DNA from: a phage
Length of the DNA: 64,000 nt
Sequence record: PZ242158.1
Direction: 5' to 3' (one strand)
The notes under the pieces are model-generated. The model saw nothing but the letters and a program-made list of their open reading frames with translations. It searched no databases and had not been told where the DNA came from. The translations under genes and the position numbers were made by a program. This document shows positions 2,880 to 48,446 of this stretch, in pieces; position 1 is the first letter of the stretch, and the number at the start of each line of letters is the position of its first letter.

Positions 2880-5303
2880 ATGAGCATGTGGTCGTTCGAT
2901 TTTGAGTCATCCGGTTTGCTGGAAGACCCAGATCTTTATTATCACTGCGGCCTGTTTAAAGAGCTGAATAAGAACCGTTTTATGCTGTTCCTTCCTCTGA
3001 ATGACCGCACACACTACTCCGAGGAGGATATAGAGAAGGCCAAGAACTTTATTCTGGCAAAGAAAACTCTTTATAAGGATTTTGAAGTTCGCATAGCAGA
3101 TTTTTCGGAGTTGGAAGGTTGGCTTACAGGAAATTCCGACTGGTCACCAACAGCTTTGAACTGCCATAACTGCTACAGTTATGACTTTATGCTGATGGAG
3201 AGATTATCCGGTATTCATTTTGATATGTTCCGTGATCCTAAATGCATGGGGACTATCAACGACCACCAGGTTAACCTGTTTGATACGTTGGCTATGAGCC
3301 GAATCTTGTGGCCTGATCGCCCTTTACCAAAAGGTTGTCCGGACGCTGTATTCAACCCGGTTACTAAGAAAATGCAACCTGTTGGTCCTCACGGCCTTAT
3401 GGCATGGGGCTACGCCCTTGGTAACCAGAAAGTTCAAATTGATGACTGGCGCGATCTTCCGCTGTGGAAATATGTGGATCGTGTGTTCGAGGACGTTATC
3501 ATCCAGGAGTTGCTCTGGAAAGAGTTGGTAGCGGAATCAAAAGGTGTATTCTACGGCAAATCTGACATGCAGAACTTTATGTATGACCCTGCCAAAGAGA
3601 AGCCTAAAGGATTCAAGAAGATTACCTGGAAGAATGCATTACGCCGAGGCATGCTGCAGCATTTCCTGATGGAGCTGCAGGCTCGACAGGGTGTGTATTT
3701 CGACATAGATGGGGCTATTGCTTTACGTGACCGCTGCGATGCGTGGATGAAAGAGATCGCTGATCGTGTTGAACCACAACTTCCTTTAAAAGAGTTATCA
3801 ATGTCTCAGCGGCCTAAGTTCCCTGAAAAGCCGTTTAACCAGGATGGGACAATCTCCAATAATGGTTGGAAATGGTTAAAAGACAAGCTTGGCTACCCTG
3901 TGGACATGAGTGCTTTAGAATTCAAAGCTCCTCCTAAGCGAGCATTTACCTCCACAGGAGATGTCAGTAAGATGGGGATAAAATGGTGTGAAGAGATGGG
4001 CTGTAAAGACCCTGACAAGATGGCGGATTTCTTGAGGGGCTATATCAAGGGCACCTCCACACCACAACCTTTACCTAAAGAGCTAATGGATCAGGCAATA
4101 AGTGATCTACAGCAGAAGCGAATGCCTGACTGCAAGATACCTATGAAAATCAGTAATCAGGACGATATTAAGCGATACCTGATCAGTGCTGGTTGGCTTC
4201 CGACAATGTGGAGAACTAAGGATGTAACTAAAGACAGCAAGAAGAAAGCTCTACCTGATGCAGATGTTGATGCACGAGTGTATGCATATATGGACGAGCT
4301 TTTAGAGTCAGAGTATTGTGACCTAATTATCAACTTCTGGAACAAAACTGATGCTAAGTTCCAGACAACCGTGCACAAGTTCCGAAGCTTTCCTAACTCC
4401 GAAAGGATTAAAAAGGAAGTATTCGGGAAAATACGTAGAAAAGCTAGGGCACTTATTACTTCTCCGCAACTGAAAGATACGTTTGGACACCTATGCCCGA
4501 ATCTTGAAAAATTGAACGGAGAGATGGCTAAAGATATCGTCTTGTGGTTATCATTGCGAAACCGCAGATCGGTCCTTGATCCAATCAAGGAGGATAAGGT
4601 TGATACTGGTCTTCTTAATCACCCACGTTTGAAGATTGACCATAAGCTTCCTGCTAAAAGTTCTGGATTAACAAACACTTCCCGACAGAAACACAGTATT
4701 TGTGCAAACATGCCTAAACCATCTCCTAAAGTGGTTATGGGTAAAGAGATGCGTAGTCTGTGGGGTGTTCCTCCAGGATACTTTGAGATCGGTATTGACG
4801 GGTCCAACTTAGAGCAGCTTATCGGGGCTTGGGGTGCCTTTGAGTTCGACAACGGCCTGTATTACGATGTTGTAAGTAACGGGGACGCACACCAAAACAA
4901 TGCTGAGGCATATACAAAAGTAGCAGGTAGAGAGGTGTCTCGTAACGACGGTAAACCTATCACGTATGGGGTTATGTATGGGGCACAAAAAGATAAAGTT
5001 GCAGATATGCTGGACATCTCTCCAGAGTTGGGACAAAGGGTAATCGATGCACTCTGGGATGCCAACCCTGGTCTTAAGGGGCGTAAAGAAGATCTGGAGA
5101 AATTCTGGGAAGCAACGGGTAAGAAGTTTATCTACTCTTTTGATGGTCATGCTATCTGGACCCGATCTAAACACTCTTTACTTAATGCATACCAACAAAA
5201 TGGCGGCGCATCGTTGTGTGACTTAGTTGGGATACTCATGCACCATCAAATGGTGAAGCGTGGGTGGTACGATGAAGGTGTTCGTCGTATTATCTATTAC
5301 CAT
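2880..5303 (+). CDS. DNA polymerase, family A, exon 1
   Basis: AAGGAG RBS; exo motifs FDFESSG and HNCYSYD; motif B KPITYGVMYG; ORF stops one codon after the His where motif C (HDE) is expected. Confidence 0.8.
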
Positions 5304-25796: not shown

Positions 25797-26216
25797 ATGA
25801 ACATTAAATCTAATAATCCGGCATATAGCTTTGATAACGCTTTTTGTCACGGTCCGGCGGCGAAAGGATTCGAAATCGATGGTAAACTAATTATTGTCAA
25901 TGTTGACGGGGAAGAGGTTGCAGTATATCCGGTGGCAGACGTAAAAAGCCGTTTACAATGCCGCATGGATGTTACCGCCTATCAGCTTGATCCGGTCCGC
26001 ATAGTTGCCCTGGTCCTGGAAGAAGAAATTAAAGCCATGCACCATAGCAACAGGTTTATTGGTGACGCTCAGGATAATATGAAGGTGTGCCGCCATAAAG
26101 TTAATGAAGTGCTTAAAGAGTACGGCTATAAAGATCTTATGATCAAACGTGATGAAAAATTCCGGTACCGTAACGACCTGGCAAATCGGATTTTTGAAAT
26201 ATACGAATCATTATAA
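25797..26216 (+). CDS. hypothetical protein
   Basis: AAGAGGTAAAAACACC RBS; last + strand gene before the non-coding switch. Confidence 0.55.
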   Translation: MNIKSNNPAYSFDNAFCHGPAAKGFEIDGKLIIVNVDGEEVAVYPVADVKSRLQCRMDVTAYQLDPVRIVALVLEEEIKAMHHSNRFIGDAQDNMKVCRHKVNEVLKEYGYKDLMIKRDEKFRYRNDLANRIFEIYESL

Positions 26217-26234
26217 TTTTTTAACTGAATTATC

Positions 26235-26259
26235 AAGGGGCTTAGGTCCCTTTCTTTTT
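26235..26259 (+). terminator. putative rho-independent terminator
   Basis: AAGGG...CCCTT stem followed by TCTTTTTG. Confidence 0.45.
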
Positions 26260-26859
26260 GTCTGCTCTTCCTCCCTACCATAAACGGCCCTACCTGGCAA
26301 GTGGAATAATTGACGAGCCATCAATCCCACACACTGTACAAATATACATGTAAAATAACTATTGCATAACCTTTCATTGTGTGGTAGCGGTGCTATTTTT
26401 ACCCGTTTTCCTTCCAAAATTGCACGTAATGCAGCTATTGCACAAAATTTAACCTGATGCGCATCTTCAATATCTTGTCAACAACTAAAAATCTTTATAA
26501 GTCATACACTTACACAAACCAAAAAGCGTGTTCTACGTGAAAAATCGAGTATAACTATAGCCGACAGATCTCAGAATTTACGTACGCTCACCATTCTATA
26601 GCCTGCTAAGTATTTATTCCGACCATAGAATAACAGAATAGTCAATACCTGCATAAAATAATTATTCGTTTAAATTGCATAACATAAATCAGCTCAGGTG
26701 TCAACATTTTTCGTAAACAGTCTGAAATTGTCACGGCAAGTTATCATAATCAGAGAAATCTTTAGTCGTCTAATGTTTACTGTACGTTACTATACTAACT
26801 GGAATCATTAGATGACTAATAGAAAGATAAGAAATAATTAACAATACAATTATTTTATC

Positions 26860-27045
26860 TGTAACAATAAGGCAACTATGCAAACGAATGGCATGGCGCG
26901 ACGGAGTCGCGACATAATATAAAAGCAGTAACCATCACCCCCGTGATAGTTTGTCTGCAATCTATTAATCAGATCATAGTTGCCTTGTATTTAGTTAATC
27001 ATGACATAACAAGCAAGGCAACTATAGATCTTCTAATAGTTGCCC
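26860..27045. repeat. iteron-like cluster (AGGCAACTAT / ATAGTTGCC in both orientations)
   Basis: At least four copies within ~180 bp plus duplicated ATGCAAACGAATGGCATGGC and palindrome CGCGACGGAGTCGCG in an AT-rich ORF-poor region. Confidence 0.5.
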
Positions 27046-27284
27046 TGCTTTTATATTATGTCATATATTATTAACTTGTTAATTGTTAGTCAGTCAAATC
27101 AACAGCGTTATCATTTCAGTCTTTATTGTTGTTGATCGTTATTGTTATCATGCAAACGAATGGCATGGCTTATCATCTCTGTATAAACAGTTTATGCGTG
27201 AACAGTGAGGCATGCAATAGTAACAATTGTTATTGTGTCATCATGTCAAGGGTAAAGTGTCATAGTATGTCAGACATGTTTTTC

Positions 27285-28277
27285 CCCTCTTTGTCAAGTG
27301 CTGCATGAAAAAATTTACAAGCTGGTATGGTAGCATTTTTGCGGCCTTGTTTACATTCAGGAGTGTATGTATAATCCTTGTTGTGTGGGCGTTTATACGT
27401 CTGGACGGTCAGAAGTCTGCAGGTTAATATCTAATCTATTGGCTGCTAACTATATCCCACACAAATGATAAGAAATATAATTGTTATATGCGTAAACTGT
27501 AACTCATGTTATCAATCCCTGTATGTATCGCCAGTGGTGCGCATAATGGGTATTATGTTAAATTGCCCGTAATGATAACAGTTCTCACAATGATAGGTAT
27601 TCTCATTCATCCACACAAAATAGGTTGCAAATGTTGTGCCACTGTGTGAACGGCCTGGCCTATTAATTTCTCTCACTGCCTCGATATTTGAGAATTGTTA
27701 TAAGAATGAGAAGTATCCATGTTTATATTACATCTACTTGGTTCAGAACCAAAATGCGCGAAAGCGTTTCACGATAACTAGCGACCACGGTCTGTTCCCT
27801 GGCGGCCATACGGCTTCTACTGAACGCAGCAGAGGGCGATAATCCCCTCTTTGTCAAGTGCTGCATGAAAAAATTTACAAGCTGGTATGGTAGCATTTTT
27901 GCGGCCTTGTTTACATTCAGGAGTGTATGTATAATCCTTGTTGTGTGGGCGTTTATACGTCTGGACGGTCAGAAGTCTGCAGGTTAATATCTAATCTATT
28001 GGCTGCTAACTATATCCCACACAAATGATAAGAAATATAATTGTTATATGCGTAAACTGTAACTCATGTTATCAATCCCTGTATGTATCGCCAGTGGTGC
28101 GCATAATGGGTATTATGTTAAATTGCCCGTAATGATAACAGTTCTCACAATGATAGGTATTCTCATTCATCCACACAAAATAGGTTGCAAATGTTGTGCC
28201 ACTGTGTGAACGGCCTGGCCTATTAATTTCTCTCACTGCCTCGATATTTGAGAATTGTTATAAGAATGAGAAGTATT
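27285..28277. repeat. tandem direct repeat: two near-identical ~430-bp copies (about 27285-27717 and 27845-28277) separated by ~128 bp
   Basis: Long stretches read identically at a ~560-bp offset; each copy contains promoter-like TTGTTT-17-TATAAT. Confidence 0.7.
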
Positions 28278-28410
28278 CCCATTCCGTCCGCCTGGCAGCG
28301 CTCCTGTAGGTCCTGCAAGGACTCTAGCTTTCAGCTAGACCCTTCGGGCCTCCCTACAGGTCAGGTCAAAATCGTGGTAGAATTGGGCCTATTCAGATAT
28401 TTCTGGCTGA

Positions 28411-28952
28411 CTCTTCAGGTCTGTGTGGGAAAAGCCAACCTCTCCGGCGGGGCAGGGGGAGGTCAATTAAAAAATTTACGTGGTGTATGAAGCGCTCTTC
28501 AGGTAAGGCAGGTATTATGGGATGAAACCCTCTTCAGGCAATGATATTTGTGGGTGTGATATTTGCTGGAAAGCCAGATATGACGGGACTCCCGGCGGGG
28601 CAGGGGTAGTACAGACAGGGAAAATATGAGAATGTAGTTGGGGAAATTGATCAGACAGGTAGAGTATGGAATATGTTACAAGTATGTTAAATATGGAGGT
28701 TGAATATCTGTAGGATTTGTGTGTAAAATCAAAGACTTAAGGGGTGTTGTGATATTTTCTATAAATAATTCAAGTTTAATAGGTGATATTTGTCTCTATC
28801 CGCTTTGTGTGGTAAACAGATTCAGATGAGATTGGTTTACAAGTGTATACATAATATACAAATTAAAGATACAAGAAACCCCCCATCCCCCTTCGGCTAC
28901 CATTCACCTTTTCCTCTGACTGGTACTTAAACACTTATTCAGACTCTTCAGG
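28411..28952. repeat. cluster of CTCTTCAGG boxes (4 copies; a 5th near 29594) and duplicated CCGGCGGGGCAGGGG
   Basis: 9-mer recurs at ~28411, 28495, 28530, 28944 within non-coding DNA; also long inverted repeat CCTGTAGG...CCTACAGG at ~28300-28360. Confidence 0.5.
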
Positions 28953-29304
28953 TTATCACCCATATATCATATGGCAGTGACTGGTGTCCTCCGGCCCCTC
29001 TTTCGTCACCCGTCCGCTTCGCCATGCTAATGCCATAGCCAATGGTTCGGTTGTTCACCCTGTTCACTCAGGTGTATCTCCATACCCCTTCAAACCGAAG
29101 AGAACAGAAAACCCGAATTACTCGGTAAAAGAAAAGAGAAGAACTTAATTTTATCAGGATAGGCAAGAATGTCAAGGCATGACTGCTCACTAAACAAGCA
29201 AACAGTCATGTGTGGGAGGTAAGTGATTGTGGTGGTGGGAAATTTAGTTGAAAGATGTGTTATAGGTGCGCTTCCAGCACTTTAGCCGGGCAGCTAATTG
29301 TGTG

Positions 29305-29520
29305 TCAGTCCAGTGGTTCATCACCTACTTCACTGAAATCAATGTTCATGGTCTCCTCCCAACCATCAATCTCAGCACCAGAGTAGAGATCTTTAGGACT
29401 TACTCCCAAAGCATCAGCAACAGAGTCCATATTTAACACCTCTGGCAGGTATGATTCATCGAATTCAAGGTAAATCAGGCCACGAGTGTTGTCAGCTCCA
29501 CCAAATATTTCTATCTTCAT
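29305..29520 (-). CDS. small acidic protein
   Basis: First gene of the minus-strand array; Asp/Glu-rich; no domain. Confidence 0.5.
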   Translation of the reverse strand: MKIEIFGGADNTRGLIYLEFDESYLPEVLNMDSVADALGVSPKDLYSGAEIDGWEETMNIDFSEVGDEPLD

Positions 29521-29641
29521 GAAATCTCCTCTGGAAATGAGAGTGTGAACAGGGTTTTATACGTTCCGATGCACAGGAATTATGCACGTTTGCCTCTTCA
29601 GGCCATGCTTTAGCATGAGGAACCTGTGTGGGCTCGGTGCT

Positions 29642-29854
29642 TCATAGTCTACCACCCCTGAACTCTTCGTGCTCAGGCATAATAGAGAACCAGATATCTA
29701 CGATGTCTTCCCACGTTAGGTCATCAGCCTCAGGATCTACCTGGAGCGAAGATGGAGAATCTTCAGAATCTAAGTTTTCCTCTTTCACTGGCTCAGCCAA
29801 GGGACATATAGTCACTCCTTTGGATGTCTCTTCAGATGCATGTGTGTTTATCAT
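29642..29854 (-). CDS. small acidic protein
   Basis: Start overlaps upstream stop (ATGA). Confidence 0.5.
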   Translation of the reverse strand: MINTHASEETSKGVTICPLAEPVKEENLDSEDSPSSLQVDPEADDLTWEDIVDIWFSIMPEHEEFRGGRL

Positions 29855-29940
29855 GTTCCACCCGTGAGTATTCCGGCAACAGCCGCTATGGACGTAATGA
29901 TCATCAGGATCACCACTAAAACTTCGGACAATGTTCTCAT
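29851..29940 (-). CDS. small hydrophobic peptide (29 aa)
   Basis: GGAG RBS; MRTLSEVLVVILMIITSIAAVAGILTGGT; stop overlaps next start. Confidence 0.4.
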   Translation of the reverse strand: MRTLSEVLVVILMIITSIAAVAGILTGGT

Positions 29941-30161
29941 TGTGTACTCCATATTCTACAAACTATGTGTGGATACTATCACTGGATCGGTAATGTGTCA
30001 ACAGAAACGCCGCGAGGGTTTGGTTAAAATCCGAGCGTATGGTGATTTGGGTCAAAACGGACGTGCGTTCTCGCTACGCTCGAAATATGGAGTTGTTTGT
30101 AGGGAGCTCTTAAACGCTCTGTAATGAGATTAACTGCCCAAGGTATGCAATCGTGCACCAG

Positions 30162-30189
30162 ATAAAGAAAAGGACGCCACAGAGCGTCC
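30162..30189 (-). terminator. rho-independent terminator
   Basis: GGACGC-TCTGTG-GCGTCC hairpin followed by TTTTCTTT on the minus strand. Confidence 0.6.
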
Positions 30190-30214
30190 TAGGTGTCTTA
30201 AATTTGATATTTTG

Positions 30215-30526
30215 CTATACCCACGAGGGCTTATCAAGGTTGGAGTAGCTGAAAGGTGTCAAAAGGTGACTGTCAAAATCTCTCAAACTATCCAAATCTT
30301 TTTCCTCGTCCTGACACCATCTGTGCCTACATTTGTTGTTGTAGTGCATGGAATGCATAGCGTTCTGCAACTTAACAGGCACAAGTGATTCAGGAGTAGA
30401 TAGTATTGTTGGGTATGCCAGAACCACCTCAAACAGTGGAAACACATCGAAACTAAAGTCTACCTCTGCAGAGGTTGATGGCATGTAGGAGTATTTAGCC
30501 GCCTTTGTAGACATAATCCACCTCAC
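30215..30526 (-). CDS. hypothetical protein
   Basis: ORF in minus array; no domain. Confidence 0.5.
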   Translation of the reverse strand: MRWIMSTKAAKYSYMPSTSAEVDFSFDVFPLFEVVLAYPTILSTPESLVPVKLQNAMHSMHYNNKCRHRWCQDEEKDLDSLRDFDSHLLTPFSYSNLDKPSWV

Positions 30527-41525: not shown

Positions 41526-42575
41526 TTAAGCTTCTTCGACAATTCCTGCACCCAGGATTTTTTCATTGAGCTCTTTTGCTGTTTTAATAATATTGTCCAC
41601 AAGACGCTTGCGAGTCTTATCTTTCACCTTAACCTCTTCACCGCCGTTCAGAGTAGTCTTCAATTGAGACAGAATATCCTGAAGTTCAACGACAGAGAAT
41701 CTCTGCAGATCTTCTGAAGTAATCTCACCCAGGGCAATTCGGACGGTCTCGCCACTTTCCATCTGCAGATTCAGGAACACAGTGTGAACATCACCTTTCG
41801 AACCACCCGCTTTTGCAGATTCAACAGCATGAACTAACTCATCTAAAGATGTGCACTGATGAATCTCCGGAAGACCTGCTTCACCTAACACGCCTTCTTC
41901 ATCACCTTTTGCCAGAAGCTTTTTCGGTTTTTGTCCGTTCTGGATGCGTTGTATGTTGCCTTCATCCAGAATAATAGCTCCAGTGCGTGCTGCCAACTCT
42001 TCTCCGTCCAACCACACTTCGCCACCAGCTGTGATGGATGCGATCTCATCTTCTGTCAGCACCCCACCGTAGTATTTTTCGATCAGGTGTTCAAAACGTT
42101 TTTTCCAGTAGCTGACCTGAGTATTCATGTTAACACCGTTACCATAAGTGCCACCTTGATAGTAGTGGAACATAAATTCTGTGTCCGGAGCCACAGTGCG
42201 TTCTTTGCAACCAAGCCATAAGATTGTTCCAGCAGAGCAGCACATCCCTTCAGCATGTGCAACAACGCTTGCCTGAGACTCGCGGAATGCCTGCAGATAG
42301 GCCATTGCAATGTGCACGCAACCACCAGGGCTATTGATGATCACACGTATGCTTTCTTCCGGCTGAGCCATACGGATCGTCTGCAGACGAGACATATGAT
42401 CCTGCAGGTCCTCCAAATCGTCGATATAAAGAACGTGGTCAACAACAGGTGTTGGGTAGCTGTATGTTTCCATGATACCGCCCGGCATACCAAACATTTT
42501 ATTACTCATAGGTTCGAAACCGTTCTGTTTTTCTTTCATGCCGTGTACCATGGTGCTGCGAGGTGTTAAATTCAT
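41526..42575 (-). CDS. ClpP-like serine peptidase (S14 family) with C-terminal extension
   Basis: IINSPGGCVHIAMAYLQAF...VAHAEGMCCSAGTILWL...FMFHYYQG matches the ClpP fold with Ser and His positions; ~130-aa charged C-terminal extension. Confidence 0.7.
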   Translation of the reverse strand: MNLTPRSTMVHGMKEKQNGFEPMSNKMFGMPGGIMETYSYPTPVVDHVLYIDDLEDLQDHMSRLQTIRMAQPEESIRVIINSPGGCVHIAMAYLQAFRESQASVVAHAEGMCCSAGTILWLGCKERTVAPDTEFMFHYYQGGTYGNGVNMNTQVSYWKKRFEHLIEKYYGGVLTEDEIASITAGGEVWLDGEELAARTGAIILDEGNIQRIQNGQKPKKLLAKGDEEGVLGEAGLPEIHQCTSLDELVHAVESAKAGGSKGDVHTVFLNLQMESGETVRIALGEITSEDLQRFSVVELQDILSQLKTTLNGGEEVKVKDKTRKRLVDNIIKTAKELNEKILGAGIVEEA

Positions 42576-45035: not shown

Positions 45036-46028
45036 CTACAGGTTATTACCTGTCCTATGTTTACAACAAATCTCTCTATGCGCTGATTCTACCATACTGA
45101 ACACTTCAGGTCTGTAGTTAAAGAATTCGGTACTACCATCAAATTTTACAGGGAAGTTTATTTTATATTTACTGAAGGCTTTGTGCATAGATTTTTCTAC
45201 AGCCAGCATGTTTTCAGTTGATCCTTCCAACGTTTTCACTATGTGAAGATCGCGGATACCAGCTCCAGATCTTTGTGCACTTTTAAGTATCTGGTCTCTT
45301 CGCTTACTTTCATTATGACTGACCCCTATTTTCATAAATGTAGGTACTTCTGGATCATCAACCATAATGTAGAGTTTTCCGTTATCGTGTGATAAAAATC
45401 CTGTTTTAGCGCATCTAGGGCAAGCATGTCCCTGCTTAAGACTGCTTGGTACGGTTAACCATGTGTGGCTACAACCTTTACAGCAGCACAGGACTTTCTT
45501 ATCCCACCCAATAATTTCTTCCAATATCTCAACATAAGGATTTCTACTTCTTATGGACTCAACCCACTTTTCGTGTGGTGATGTTTTACTTTGTGAGATT
45601 CTTGACCCCTTGCAAACTGGACAACCTCTTTTCAAATTTATATGGTTATCAGGTGTCTGTGTAAAGTGATTTCCACAAGTGTTGCAGATTATTTCTACCC
45701 TGTCTTTGCAAGTCTTGTAGTATACGAGAGAGTAGTCATATTTATCTCCATGGATTTCTTTGGCCCTTTCTACAAATTTAAGACCTTTATTACACTTTGC
45801 AGCACGAGAAAGTTTTGCACAAAAAGGACAACCACGACCTTGCAAGTGTTTACAAGGTGCTTGCATAAAATCCCCATGGATTTGGCAGGTAATGCAAACC
45901 TTCGCATAGCAATCCACGTACACTGTTTTCGTGTAATCGTATTTATAACCGTGAATGATTTTCGCCTTCTCTATAAACTCTTCTGTTGATAATTTAGCCA
46001 TTTCTTGTTTCCTAACTTCCCTAAACAT
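45036..46028 (-). CDS. homing-endonuclease-like protein (repeated zinc-binding modules plus T5orf172/GIY-YIG-like C-terminal domain)
   Basis: Three repeats of HG-KYDYS...C..C...G.F...P..H...GCP.C; C-terminal GKLYIM...KIGVS block. Confidence 0.5.
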   Translation of the reverse strand: MFREVRKQEMAKLSTEEFIEKAKIIHGYKYDYTKTVYVDCYAKVCITCQIHGDFMQAPCKHLQGRGCPFCAKLSRAAKCNKGLKFVERAKEIHGDKYDYSLVYYKTCKDRVEIICNTCGNHFTQTPDNHINLKRGCPVCKGSRISQSKTSPHEKWVESIRSRNPYVEILEEIIGWDKKVLCCCKGCSHTWLTVPSSLKQGHACPRCAKTGFLSHDNGKLYIMVDDPEVPTFMKIGVSHNESKRRDQILKSAQRSGAGIRDLHIVKTLEGSTENMLAVEKSMHKAFSKYKINFPVKFDGSTEFFNYRPEVFSMVESAHREICCKHRTGNNL

Positions 46029-46065: not shown

Positions 46066-47328
46066 TCAGCAACCACAACTTCCGTAGTGCTTAACTCGCT
46101 CGATAACTTCCGCTTGCTTACCTTTATTGTAAGGACGGGAGTTAGGACTGGAAAGATATCCAGACACTCTTCGGATCACTGAGATATATTGTTCATCGTG
46201 GCATCCGCACGCAGGGCAGCAGAACCCTTTAGCTGTTGCACTGAACTCACCAGAGAAACCACACTTGAGACATTTATCCACAGGTTGGTTAATACCAAAA
46301 TACATAATATGTTTATACCCGAAGTCAACAAGAGCCTCTAAAGCATCCAGGTTGTTTTTCAGGTTAGGTGTCTCTACGTATCCAATGTTGCCACCAGAGG
46401 AGATCATAGCAAAACCTTCCTCATACTCCCACTTATCAAAAGGAGAGCTATTTATCCACACTGGCTGATGGAAACTGTTGGTGAGATATTCATGCTCGTG
46501 CTTCAACACTTCCGGGTATTCACGATCCAGACAGGTTGCAGCTTTATAGCATAGACTCTCAGAAGGAGTGCCGTACAAGCTAAATGCTAGTCTACTTTCC
46601 TTCTTGTATCGCTCACAAGCATCTCTCATGTGCTGAAGGATTCCAAGAGCTAAAGCCTTGTCACCCTCTCTGCCCAAAATCTGACAGGTTTCATACACAC
46701 CAATATACCCAATACTGATGGAAGCGTACCCGTCATAGAAGAGTTTATCAATACTCTCTTCAGGATCCAGGCGAGCAAGAGCGCCTTCACACCACATGAT
46801 GGGGTTCTGCCCTGCCTTTGTTCCTTTTAGACGGTTAACCCTTACAAGGTGAGCCTCATATGCAAGATCCAAGTATTCGTCAAGAACTGCAAAGAAATCA
46901 ACACCTTCCGTCTTAGCTTTTGCCGCAATCATTGGCAGGTTAAGGCTAACAACGCCTAAGTTAAATCTGCCAAGGTATTTCTCCTCGCCTGTTTCCAAGT
47001 CATTGTATTTGCTAAGAAAACTCCTGCAACCCATGCTAGTTACTTTGCCATCTGTCGAGCCTGTCACTTTTCTATTTAGTGGTACAGATACGAAGTCAGG
47101 ATAGATACGTTCTGCACAGCATTCCAGAGCTAATCGTTTCAAATCATAGTTAGGATCCCCAGGGTTCATGTTGACACCCTCTTCCAGGAAGAACAGCACT
47201 TTAGGGAACACAGGTGTGATACGTTCTTCACCAAGACCCATTTTGTGGACTTTCAAGTAATTTTTGGTAATCATTCTACCAAAGACCGAAGTGTCCAAAC
47301 CTAAACTTAATGTGATAAAAGGGGTTTG
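46066..47328 (-). CDS. nrdD: anaerobic ribonucleoside-triphosphate reductase, exon 2
   Basis: Begins QTPFITLSLGL (aligns to E. coli NrdD QTPFVTFGFGL); C-terminal zinc site CLKCGF...CPACGC and glycyl-radical region RRVSGYLS. Confidence 0.8.
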   Translation of the reverse strand, partial: QTPFITLSLGLDTSVFGRMITKNYLKVHKMGLGEERITPVFPKVLFFLEEGVNMNPGDPNYDLKRLALECCAERIYPDFVSVPLNRKVTGSTDGKVTSMGCRSFLSKYNDLETGEEKYLGRFNLGVVSLNLPMIAAKAKTEGVDFFAVLDEYLDLAYEAHLVRVNRLKGTKAGQNPIMWCEGALARLDPEESIDKLFYDGYASISIGYIGVYETCQILGREGDKALALGILQHMRDACERYKKESRLAFSLYGTPSESLCYKAATCLDREYPEVLKHEHEYLTNSFHQPVWINSSPFDKWEYEEGFAMISSGGNIGYVETPNLKNNLDALEALVDFGYKHIMYFGINQPVDKCLKCGFSGEFSATAKGFCCPACGCHDEQYISVIRRVSGYLSSPNSRPYNKGKQAEVIERVKHYGSCGC

Positions 47329-47585
47329 CGGTCCCCACCCTTATGTTTCCACAAGGCCAGACTATCTCTTGCCTGAAATCACACCGTGTGATTCTTAATC
47401 AGACCCCTGCGTTTCGGAATCTTCCATAATCCCTACACCAAAAGGTTAGTCGTTACAACCGCCTCACTCCTTGTGAAGCTAGTCACGGGATTGGCATAGC
47501 TTTCGCCTTAGCGTTCCCCGTTAGCCAGCGATCAGCTGACCCCTCATACTGAGGTTAGCAGAGTTTTAAAACGGCCAGTTTGTTA
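47329..47585 (-). other. ORF-less group I intron in nrdD (~257 nt)
   Basis: Exon 1 ends ...VNG then in-frame TAA; 5' exon ends in U, intron ends in G; guide GCCGUU pairs with exon AACGGU; P/Q/R/S-like elements present; boundaries approximate. Confidence 0.65.
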
Positions 47586-48446
47586 ACCGTTTACCGAGGT
47601 TAGTGTGTTGATCTGATAAAGCAACGTCTGCATGCTGTCAAACACGTCTTTATCTGTCATTTGCATTGCAACAGTTTCAGCATCCGGCAACCAATGTTCC
47701 TGGCAAAATTTAAGGTTCTTCTCATAGGTTGCTTCAGCATACTGTGCCAGATAATGATCAATATGGCTCATAGTCTGACCACCATATTGAGCACTAGCTA
47801 CCGCGCTAGAGATTTGACTAAGGATTGTTGTTGCAACCCCTATTGACTTCGGCTTACTGACATGGGCGTTGCCAATGTTGAATCCGTTTTCCAACATATC
47901 TGGATAATTTACCAAACAACAGTTTGTTAACGGACTGATCAAGTAGTCAAGATCATGCACATGGATGAAGCCTTTATTGTGCTCTTCTGAAACACGGTCT
48001 GGCAGGATCTGTGTTGATGCAAGGTGTTTGCTAAGGATGCCTGCAAGCAGGTCACGATGAGTGTGTACATGATTAGTGGGCTTATTTGCGTTTTCTTTTG
48101 TAAATTCATCACAAGTTCGATCCAAGAAGCCACTAATATCTGCAAGCAGTTTTCCACCTGCCTCTCTGTTATTATCTCTTGTCTGTCTATACTGGATGTA
48201 TTCTCTGGCTGCACATTTTAAACCCATATCCATAAGAGCATCTTCAACAAGGATATGGATATTTTTTACAGAGATCGTGCACTGGTCGGTTGGTAGATTG
48301 TTAGCAACAACTTCATTAACCGCGCAGGCGATCCGGTAAGCTTCTTCTTCAGTATGTCCAGACTCAAGTAAGGCGGACTCTGCCGCCTTGATCACCTTAA
48401 TTCCGTTATAGAACTCTTCTCTACCGTCCCGTTTTACAACTTTCAC
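47586..48446 (-). CDS. nrdD: anaerobic ribonucleoside-triphosphate reductase, exon 1
   Basis: ATP-cone-like N-terminus MKVVKRDGREEFY; ends ...NTLTSVNG where E. coli NrdD continues ANGQTPF. Confidence 0.8.

Follow-up and report, generated by a model that had tools for sequence, protein, structure and literature searches.

Two side-by-side copies of the Vequintavirus direct terminal repeat, joined through a nanopore adapter, in the interior of a phage sequence

The window analysed here, a stretch of 64,000 nucleotides from phage sequence record PZ242158.1, contains an exact direct repeat of 434 bp (27283-27716 = 27843-28276, offset 560 bp), the two copies being separated by a spacer of 126 bp (27717-27842). 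By comparison with related phages, the repeated unit is the core of the published direct terminal repeat (DTR) of the genus Vequintavirus, ~460 bp in length. The spacer is derived from an Oxford Nanopore rapid-barcoding adapter, i.e. it is contamination, and the tandem arrangement of the two copies is technical, with no biological structure behind it. This reading as a whole is very probable; within it, a linear contig would have possessed both DTR copies and, at its right end, the 126 bp adapter, and was then probably treated as circular. The terminal repeat of the phage is the one known from its genus, and it adds nothing new on the mechanism. The DTR of the genus is published, and the value of the observation lies in the correction of a record.

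Sequence identity between the two copies breaks off sharply at both ends of the 434 bp repeat. The spacer has a GC content of 49%, compared with 38% in the repeat and 43% in the whole window. The original prediction had described identical segments of ~430 bp with a gap of ~128 bp, and these estimates agree well with the measured 434 bp and 126 bp. Tandem Repeats Finder, applied to the window, does not report the 434 bp repeat because its period of 560 bp exceeds the 500 bp limit of the program. The ~4 kb surrounding the repeat (26216-30215) are poor in open reading frames; no ORF of at least 100 aa is found in this zone. To the left, the zone is bordered by a plus-strand gene arm with a DnaB-like helicase and a family A DNA polymerase, to the right by a minus-strand arm with ribonucleotide reductases, PhoH and a Thy1-like protein. 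Both arms are transcribed inward, towards the ORF-poor zone, in which the GC skew turns. Positions of the features belonging to the repeat and its spacer are listed in Table 1.

Table 1. Features of the repeat, its spacer and its left flank (positions in the 64,000-nucleotide window)
Feature	Position	Strand	Description
Short TGTCA-repeat array	27236..27272	+	Ends exactly at the left DTR boundary; candidate terminase recognition element
Right-terminal DTR copy	27273..27716	+	Natural left boundary 27272/27273; lacks the last 16 nt (TCCCATTCCGTCCGCC) of the ~460 bp repeat; from the Gotham alignment
Promoter-like site TTGTTT-17-TATAAT	27347..27375	+	Read from the sequence; points inward from the left genome end
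Technical insert, noisy adapter copy	27717..27842	-	Leader, barcode flank, barcode 08, Mu right end, then ~16 garbled nt beside the repeat
Exact Mu right-end (MuA transposase binding) 21-mer	27757..27777	+	CGCGAAAGCGTTTCACGATAA; used in nanopore rapid kits
Putative barcode 08 core	27789..27801	-	CAGGGAACAGACC in the window versus CAGGGAACAAACC in the barcode, 12/13
Left-terminal DTR copy	27843..28292	+	Lacks the first 10 nt (GACATGTTTT); natural right boundary between ...CCGTCCGCC and TGGCAGC at 28292/28293; from the Gotham alignment
Promoter-like site, second occurrence	27907..27935	+	As above

One of the genes in the window, nrdD (anaerobic ribonucleotide reductase, 46066-48446, minus strand), is split into two ORFs. 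The N-terminal ORF covers positions 1-154 of the Pfam NRDD model and includes an ATP-cone, the C-terminal ORF covers positions 172-562 and includes the glycyl-radical domain. The gap between them (candidate intron 47339-47595) yields a full-length Rfam group I intron match below threshold (29.3 bits, gathering threshold 50; E 1.6e-5 in a 601 nt search), and probably represents a group I intron that lacks an ORF, as is the case in T4 nrdD. Directly downstream of the split nrdD, a free-standing ORF (45036-46028, minus strand) possesses T5orf172 and DUF4379 (treble-clef zinc finger) domains and looks like a homing-endonuclease-type gene.

Region 26200-30300 of the window has matches with 92-97% identity in 122 phage records, almost all from rV5-like E. 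coli phages (genus Vequintavirus). The window phage belongs to this genus on the basis of this similarity. Matched spans in the relatives comprise ~3.5 kb for the 4.1 kb query, i.e. they are shorter by about one repeat period. Direct comparison with nomine, navn and rV5_ev147 reveals the left flank, a single copy of the unit and the right flank, with no trace of a second copy or of the spacer in these three genomes. Used as a query, the 434 bp unit has a near-full-length match in 118 of 120 records, at 127 places in total; most records therefore carry a single copy. One copy per genome circle is what is expected of a DTR in a collapsed assembly or at a concatemer junction. Approximately 18 records deposited as "Campylobacter phage" (MG0656xx, with Campylobacter jejuni as host) share 94% identity with the window phage across the region, which points to mislabelled or contaminating phages in this submission.

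Several relatives possess the unit at both ends of their records. In the Gotham record, a repeat_region of 459 bp is annotated at 1-459 and again at 136567-137025, at both record ends, and the two copies are identical to one another. For EdH4 and HdK5, terminal redundancies of 458 bp have been published (Korf et al., PMC6563267). The unit occurs at two places per record, one at each end, in EdH4, HdK5, ECP2309 and Gotham, and these four records start exactly at the right DTR boundary. Two further records have an end at the left DTR boundary, 10 nt to the left of the exact repeat: Pr121LW begins there and ECP2303 ends there. Six records of independent isolates thus agree on fixed boundaries, and the copies in the window match them on their natural sides. 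Short "repeat_region" features of ~35 bp in Danish wastewater phages were also considered as marks of terminal repeats and rejected, being merely short internal repeats.

Aligned to the window, the Gotham DTR begins at 27273, 10 nt to the left of copy 1 and inside the native left flank, and stops at 28292, 16 nt to the right of copy 2 and inside the native right flank. From the extent of this alignment it follows that copy 1 lacks the last 16 nt of the DTR and copy 2 its first 10 nt. Both ends of the virion DNA would accordingly carry the DTR sequence in direct orientation, as judged from the 458/459 bp repeats of the relatives, and the two copies in the window flank a read or contig end that is marked by the adapter. 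Among the options listed in the original prediction was terminal-redundancy or packaging-related sequence collapsed in assembly. The unit is indeed the DTR and its side-by-side layout is technical, but nothing has been collapsed: both copies were kept and became joined via an untrimmed adapter, which the original prediction had not recognised as such.

A contig assembled from a circular or circularly permuted genome, with ends that overlap arbitrarily, are joined by adapter and have no relation to the physical ends of the DNA, would produce a similar picture. Contig-end overlaps are common in long-read assemblies, and the adapter marks a contig or read end in exactly this place. However, if a run-off loss of 10-16 nt is allowed for, the boundaries of the copies are the DTR boundaries seen in at least six independent relatives, and they also agree with the published 458/459 bp repeats and with a fixed packaging start. 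An arbitrary overlap would not hit both boundaries and is therefore very improbable.

A technical origin is indicated by the spacer itself. Its reverse complement aligns collinearly with a rapid-barcoding adapter composed of leader, barcode flank, barcode 08 and Mu end (75/111 positions). The alignment score of 31 compares with 11.2 +/- 2.8 in 1000 shuffles (~7 SD), and with 10.5 for the plus orientation. The Mu right-end 50-mer matches at 40 of 50 positions, including an exact 21-mer. The leader AATGTACTTCGTTCAGTTACG is matched at 14/21 positions and the barcode flank GCTTGGGTGTTTAACC at just 7/16, both in the correct order and on the correct strand. The match to barcode 08 is noisy and no more than suggestive (14/24 overall, with a core of 12/13); barcode 08 is the best of 12 barcodes tried, with a score reached by 5 of 5000 shuffles. 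The adapter copy as a whole has ~68% identity, corresponding to raw-read quality, and ~16 nt beside copy 1 fit neither the adapter nor the expected end of the repeat. No adapter-like site is present elsewhere in the window.

The full adapter layout (leader, flank, barcode and Mu end) is presumably the one given above, which in part follows the adapter list of Porechop. Its individual parts are confirmed in papers and in other public records, e.g. by an intact adapter inside PQ065999. The sequence of the Mu-end oligonucleotide is printed in PMC5517011 and that of barcode 08 in PMC5534310, and rapid-barcoding kits use a MuA transposome with a cargo carrying the barcode flank GCTTGGGTGTTTAACC (bioRxiv 10.64898/2026.04.18.719403). 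The exact 21-mer matches only phages Mu and SfMu, close to their extreme right ends (at a distance of 20-40 nt), and two unrelated phage records, where it forms the first 21 nt of one and lies ~150 nt before the end of the other. Remnants of rapid adapters were observed in other phage and plasmid records as well, mostly at or near the record ends (PQ621707.1, 1-80; PQ065999.1, ~41950-42060; NZ_CP109282.1, 171921-171948; CP042611.1, 3023-3050). In Proteus phage PM1, the adapter lies within a CDS annotated as "hypothetical protein".

None of 120 relatives contains the spacer, a search with it in 5,426 complete E. coli genomes is blank, and the exact junction between repeat and spacer is not found in IMG/VR. 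Among plasmids, the Mu-end part alone is matched, and two of the three matches are near record ends. A host or plasmid origin of the spacer was considered and rejected on these results, the E. coli genomes being blank and the plasmids matching the Mu-end part only.

The same evidence bears on a genuine tandem duplication of the type A-B-A, with a 126 bp filler or mobile insert that contains Mu-end-like sequence. The sequence as it stands does have this structure, and Shigella phage CM1 likewise possesses two adjoining internal copies of the unit. A biological tandem duplication is expected to have a junction of native DNA, whereas the spacer is adapter-like and occurs neither in relatives nor in hosts; beyond the Mu end, it includes a leader and a probable nanopore barcode. 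Moreover, the boundaries of the copies lie 10 and 16 nt short of the DTR ends, and the CM1 copies lack a spacer and end at the DTR boundary, as would two terminal copies retained in a rotated record. A genuine duplication is consequently very improbable.

The likely course of events starts from the DNA in the virion, which would be linear, with an exact DTR of ~460 bp at each end, and would have been sequenced from an Oxford Nanopore rapid-barcoding (MuA transposase) library. In such a library, the reads would possess the adapter at their 5' end only and run off the natural DNA ends at their 3' end. Nanopore reads running off a DNA end lose 10-20 bp (bioRxiv 10.64898/2026.04.18.719403), and such a loss would explain the 16 nt missing at the right terminus and the 10 nt missing at the left. 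The linear contig would have retained both terminal copies, each 10-16 nt short. A transposase would not be expected to place its adapter precisely at a physical end of the DNA, and for this reason either a near-end read or a chimeric read is needed as the source of the adapter. In the first case, a minus-strand read starting within ~20 nt of the right terminus would have left its untrimmed adapter on the end of the contig; an assembler would tend to choose such a read because the adapter overhang extends the contig furthest. A chimeric read may alternatively have supplied the adapter. The adapter would have stayed at raw-read quality because polishing reads would not map to it. Finally, the linear contig would have been taken as circular, either because it was rotated or because a record labelled circular was read through its ends, and this treatment would bring the right end, the adapter and the left end next to one another inside the sequence. 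We infer this order of assembly events from the layout of the junction.

The remaining explanation, with duplicated promoter or ncRNA units or protein-binding (enhancer- or partition-like) units kept in two copies under selection, draws on the TATAAT box and weak -35 element present in each copy and on the enrichment of promoter-like sites in the surrounding 4 kb (25, compared with 11.9 +/- 3.7 expected). The original prediction had described a strong promoter-like site. The motif TTGTTT-17-TATAAT does exist in each copy, but it is not strong: TTGTTT agrees with the -35 consensus at only 3 of 6 positions, and the site consequently falls below the threshold of a consensus scan. Rfam yields no match, neither in the whole window at gathering thresholds nor in 26200-30300 at E<=1, and no tRNA or tmRNA genes are found. 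The idea of an ncRNA unit was dropped on these grounds. A potential hairpin at 28303-28362, just past the right repeat boundary, does not reach significance (z = -1.7). The promoter, ncRNA, enhancer and partition readings find no support: the relatives have one copy per genome circle, the search for RNA families is blank even at permissive thresholds, the -35 element is weak, and the second copy in the window is accounted for by the adapter junction. Functional units in two selected copies are scarcely credible.

As the DTR of this phage, the unit would work in the manner known from T7-type phages, by analogy with which its biology is described here. Concatemers would contain one DTR copy per junction; terminase would cut at two fixed boundaries, the second copy being made during packaging. 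Re-synthesis in packaging would keep the two copies perfectly identical without a recent duplication. The proposal of a recent duplication or an active homogenisation, made earlier from the perfect identity, may thus be retained solely in this sense, i.e. as re-synthesis at each round of packaging in a T7-type cycle, and not otherwise. After injection, the repeats would let genomes concatenate for replication.

The left DTR boundary is preceded by an array of TGTCA/TGTAA repeats spaced ~8-14 nt apart. In rV5_ev147 (4018-4180 of the compared stretch) the array has an additional 161 nt, and in CM1 it falls inside a 523 bp repeat (2428-2490 of the compared stretch). In the window it ends exactly at the left boundary, and it is a candidate recognition element of the terminase. 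It is possible, at rather long odds, that all parts of a wider biological reading hold: the artefact marks the ends of the phage DNA to within 10-16 nt, the array may set the left cut, and the promoter-like site could drive the first transcription after injection. If the array were a terminase element that sets the left cut, the Vequintaviruses would form a natural series on how short terminal repeats are measured.

Further short repeats were observed on both sides of the DTR. An iteron-like cluster (26860-27170), 100-400 bp from the terminal repeat, contains the 10-mer AGGCAACTAT four times in alternating orientation. Across the window, this 10-mer has 11 matches (4.6 expected), three exact ones of which are located in the cluster. 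The cluster is framed by an exact 20-mer, ATGCAAACGAATGGCATGGC, with copies 272 nt apart, and it could be a candidate protein-binding site for replication or packaging. In the ORF-poor zone to the right of the DTR, CTCTTCAGG is present five times within 1.2 kb (28411-29602, plus strand) and eight times in the whole window (1.2 expected). CGGCGGGGCAGGGG occurs in two copies, at 28445 and 28593. No Rfam match is found in the repeat region 28411-29602.

With regard to curation, the interior of the sequence includes 126 bp of adapter, which is of non-biological origin, as well as a duplicated DTR. Both need to be taken out, or re-annotated as genome ends, before repeats, promoters or gene content are analysed. 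More generally, where exact repeats in a phage assembly enclose a short segment of unusual composition, a comparison with sequencing adapters is advisable.

The closest known systems are the DTRs of other Vequintaviruses (Gotham 459 bp, EdH4 and HdK5 458 bp), which are 94-97% identical to the repeat in the window. They occupy the same place, an ORF-poor zone between two gene arms transcribed inward, and possess the same boundaries (GACA.GTTTTTC... on the left, ...CCGTCCGCC on the right). Unlike these DTRs, which are located at the record ends, the copies in the window are internal, lie side by side with adapter between them and are short of 10 and 16 nt.

Shigella phage CM1 (MK962749.1) contains an exact internal tandem of two 523 bp copies with the same right boundary as in the window. 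It differs in the lack of a spacer and in a repeat that reaches 63 nt further to the left and takes in the TGTCA array. The CM1 tandem fits two terminal copies retained in a rotated record, and its left extension suggests either a longer DTR or an overlap that was defined differently.

The spacer itself has its counterparts in other records. Streptococcus phage record PQ621707 displays, from position 1, the reverse-complement Mu end, barcode 08 and the flank, i.e. the arrangement of the spacer. The same order of Mu right end and barcode flank occurs at the start of PQ621707.1 and near the end of PQ065999.1, with barcode 08 also in the former. The adapter remnants of these two records are nearly exact and located at or near the record ends, whereas the copy in the window has ~68% identity and is internal.

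Phages of the T7, T3, SP6 and N4 class possess short, exact, non-permuted terminal repeats with fixed ends, which are non-coding, contain promoter-like sites and occur once per concatemer junction. The DTR of the window phage shares these traits, and the T7-type repeat is its likely working model by analogy. In length, ~460 bp in the window compare with ~160-230 bp in T7 and T3, and the mechanism in rV5-like myoviruses would correspond to theirs by analogy.
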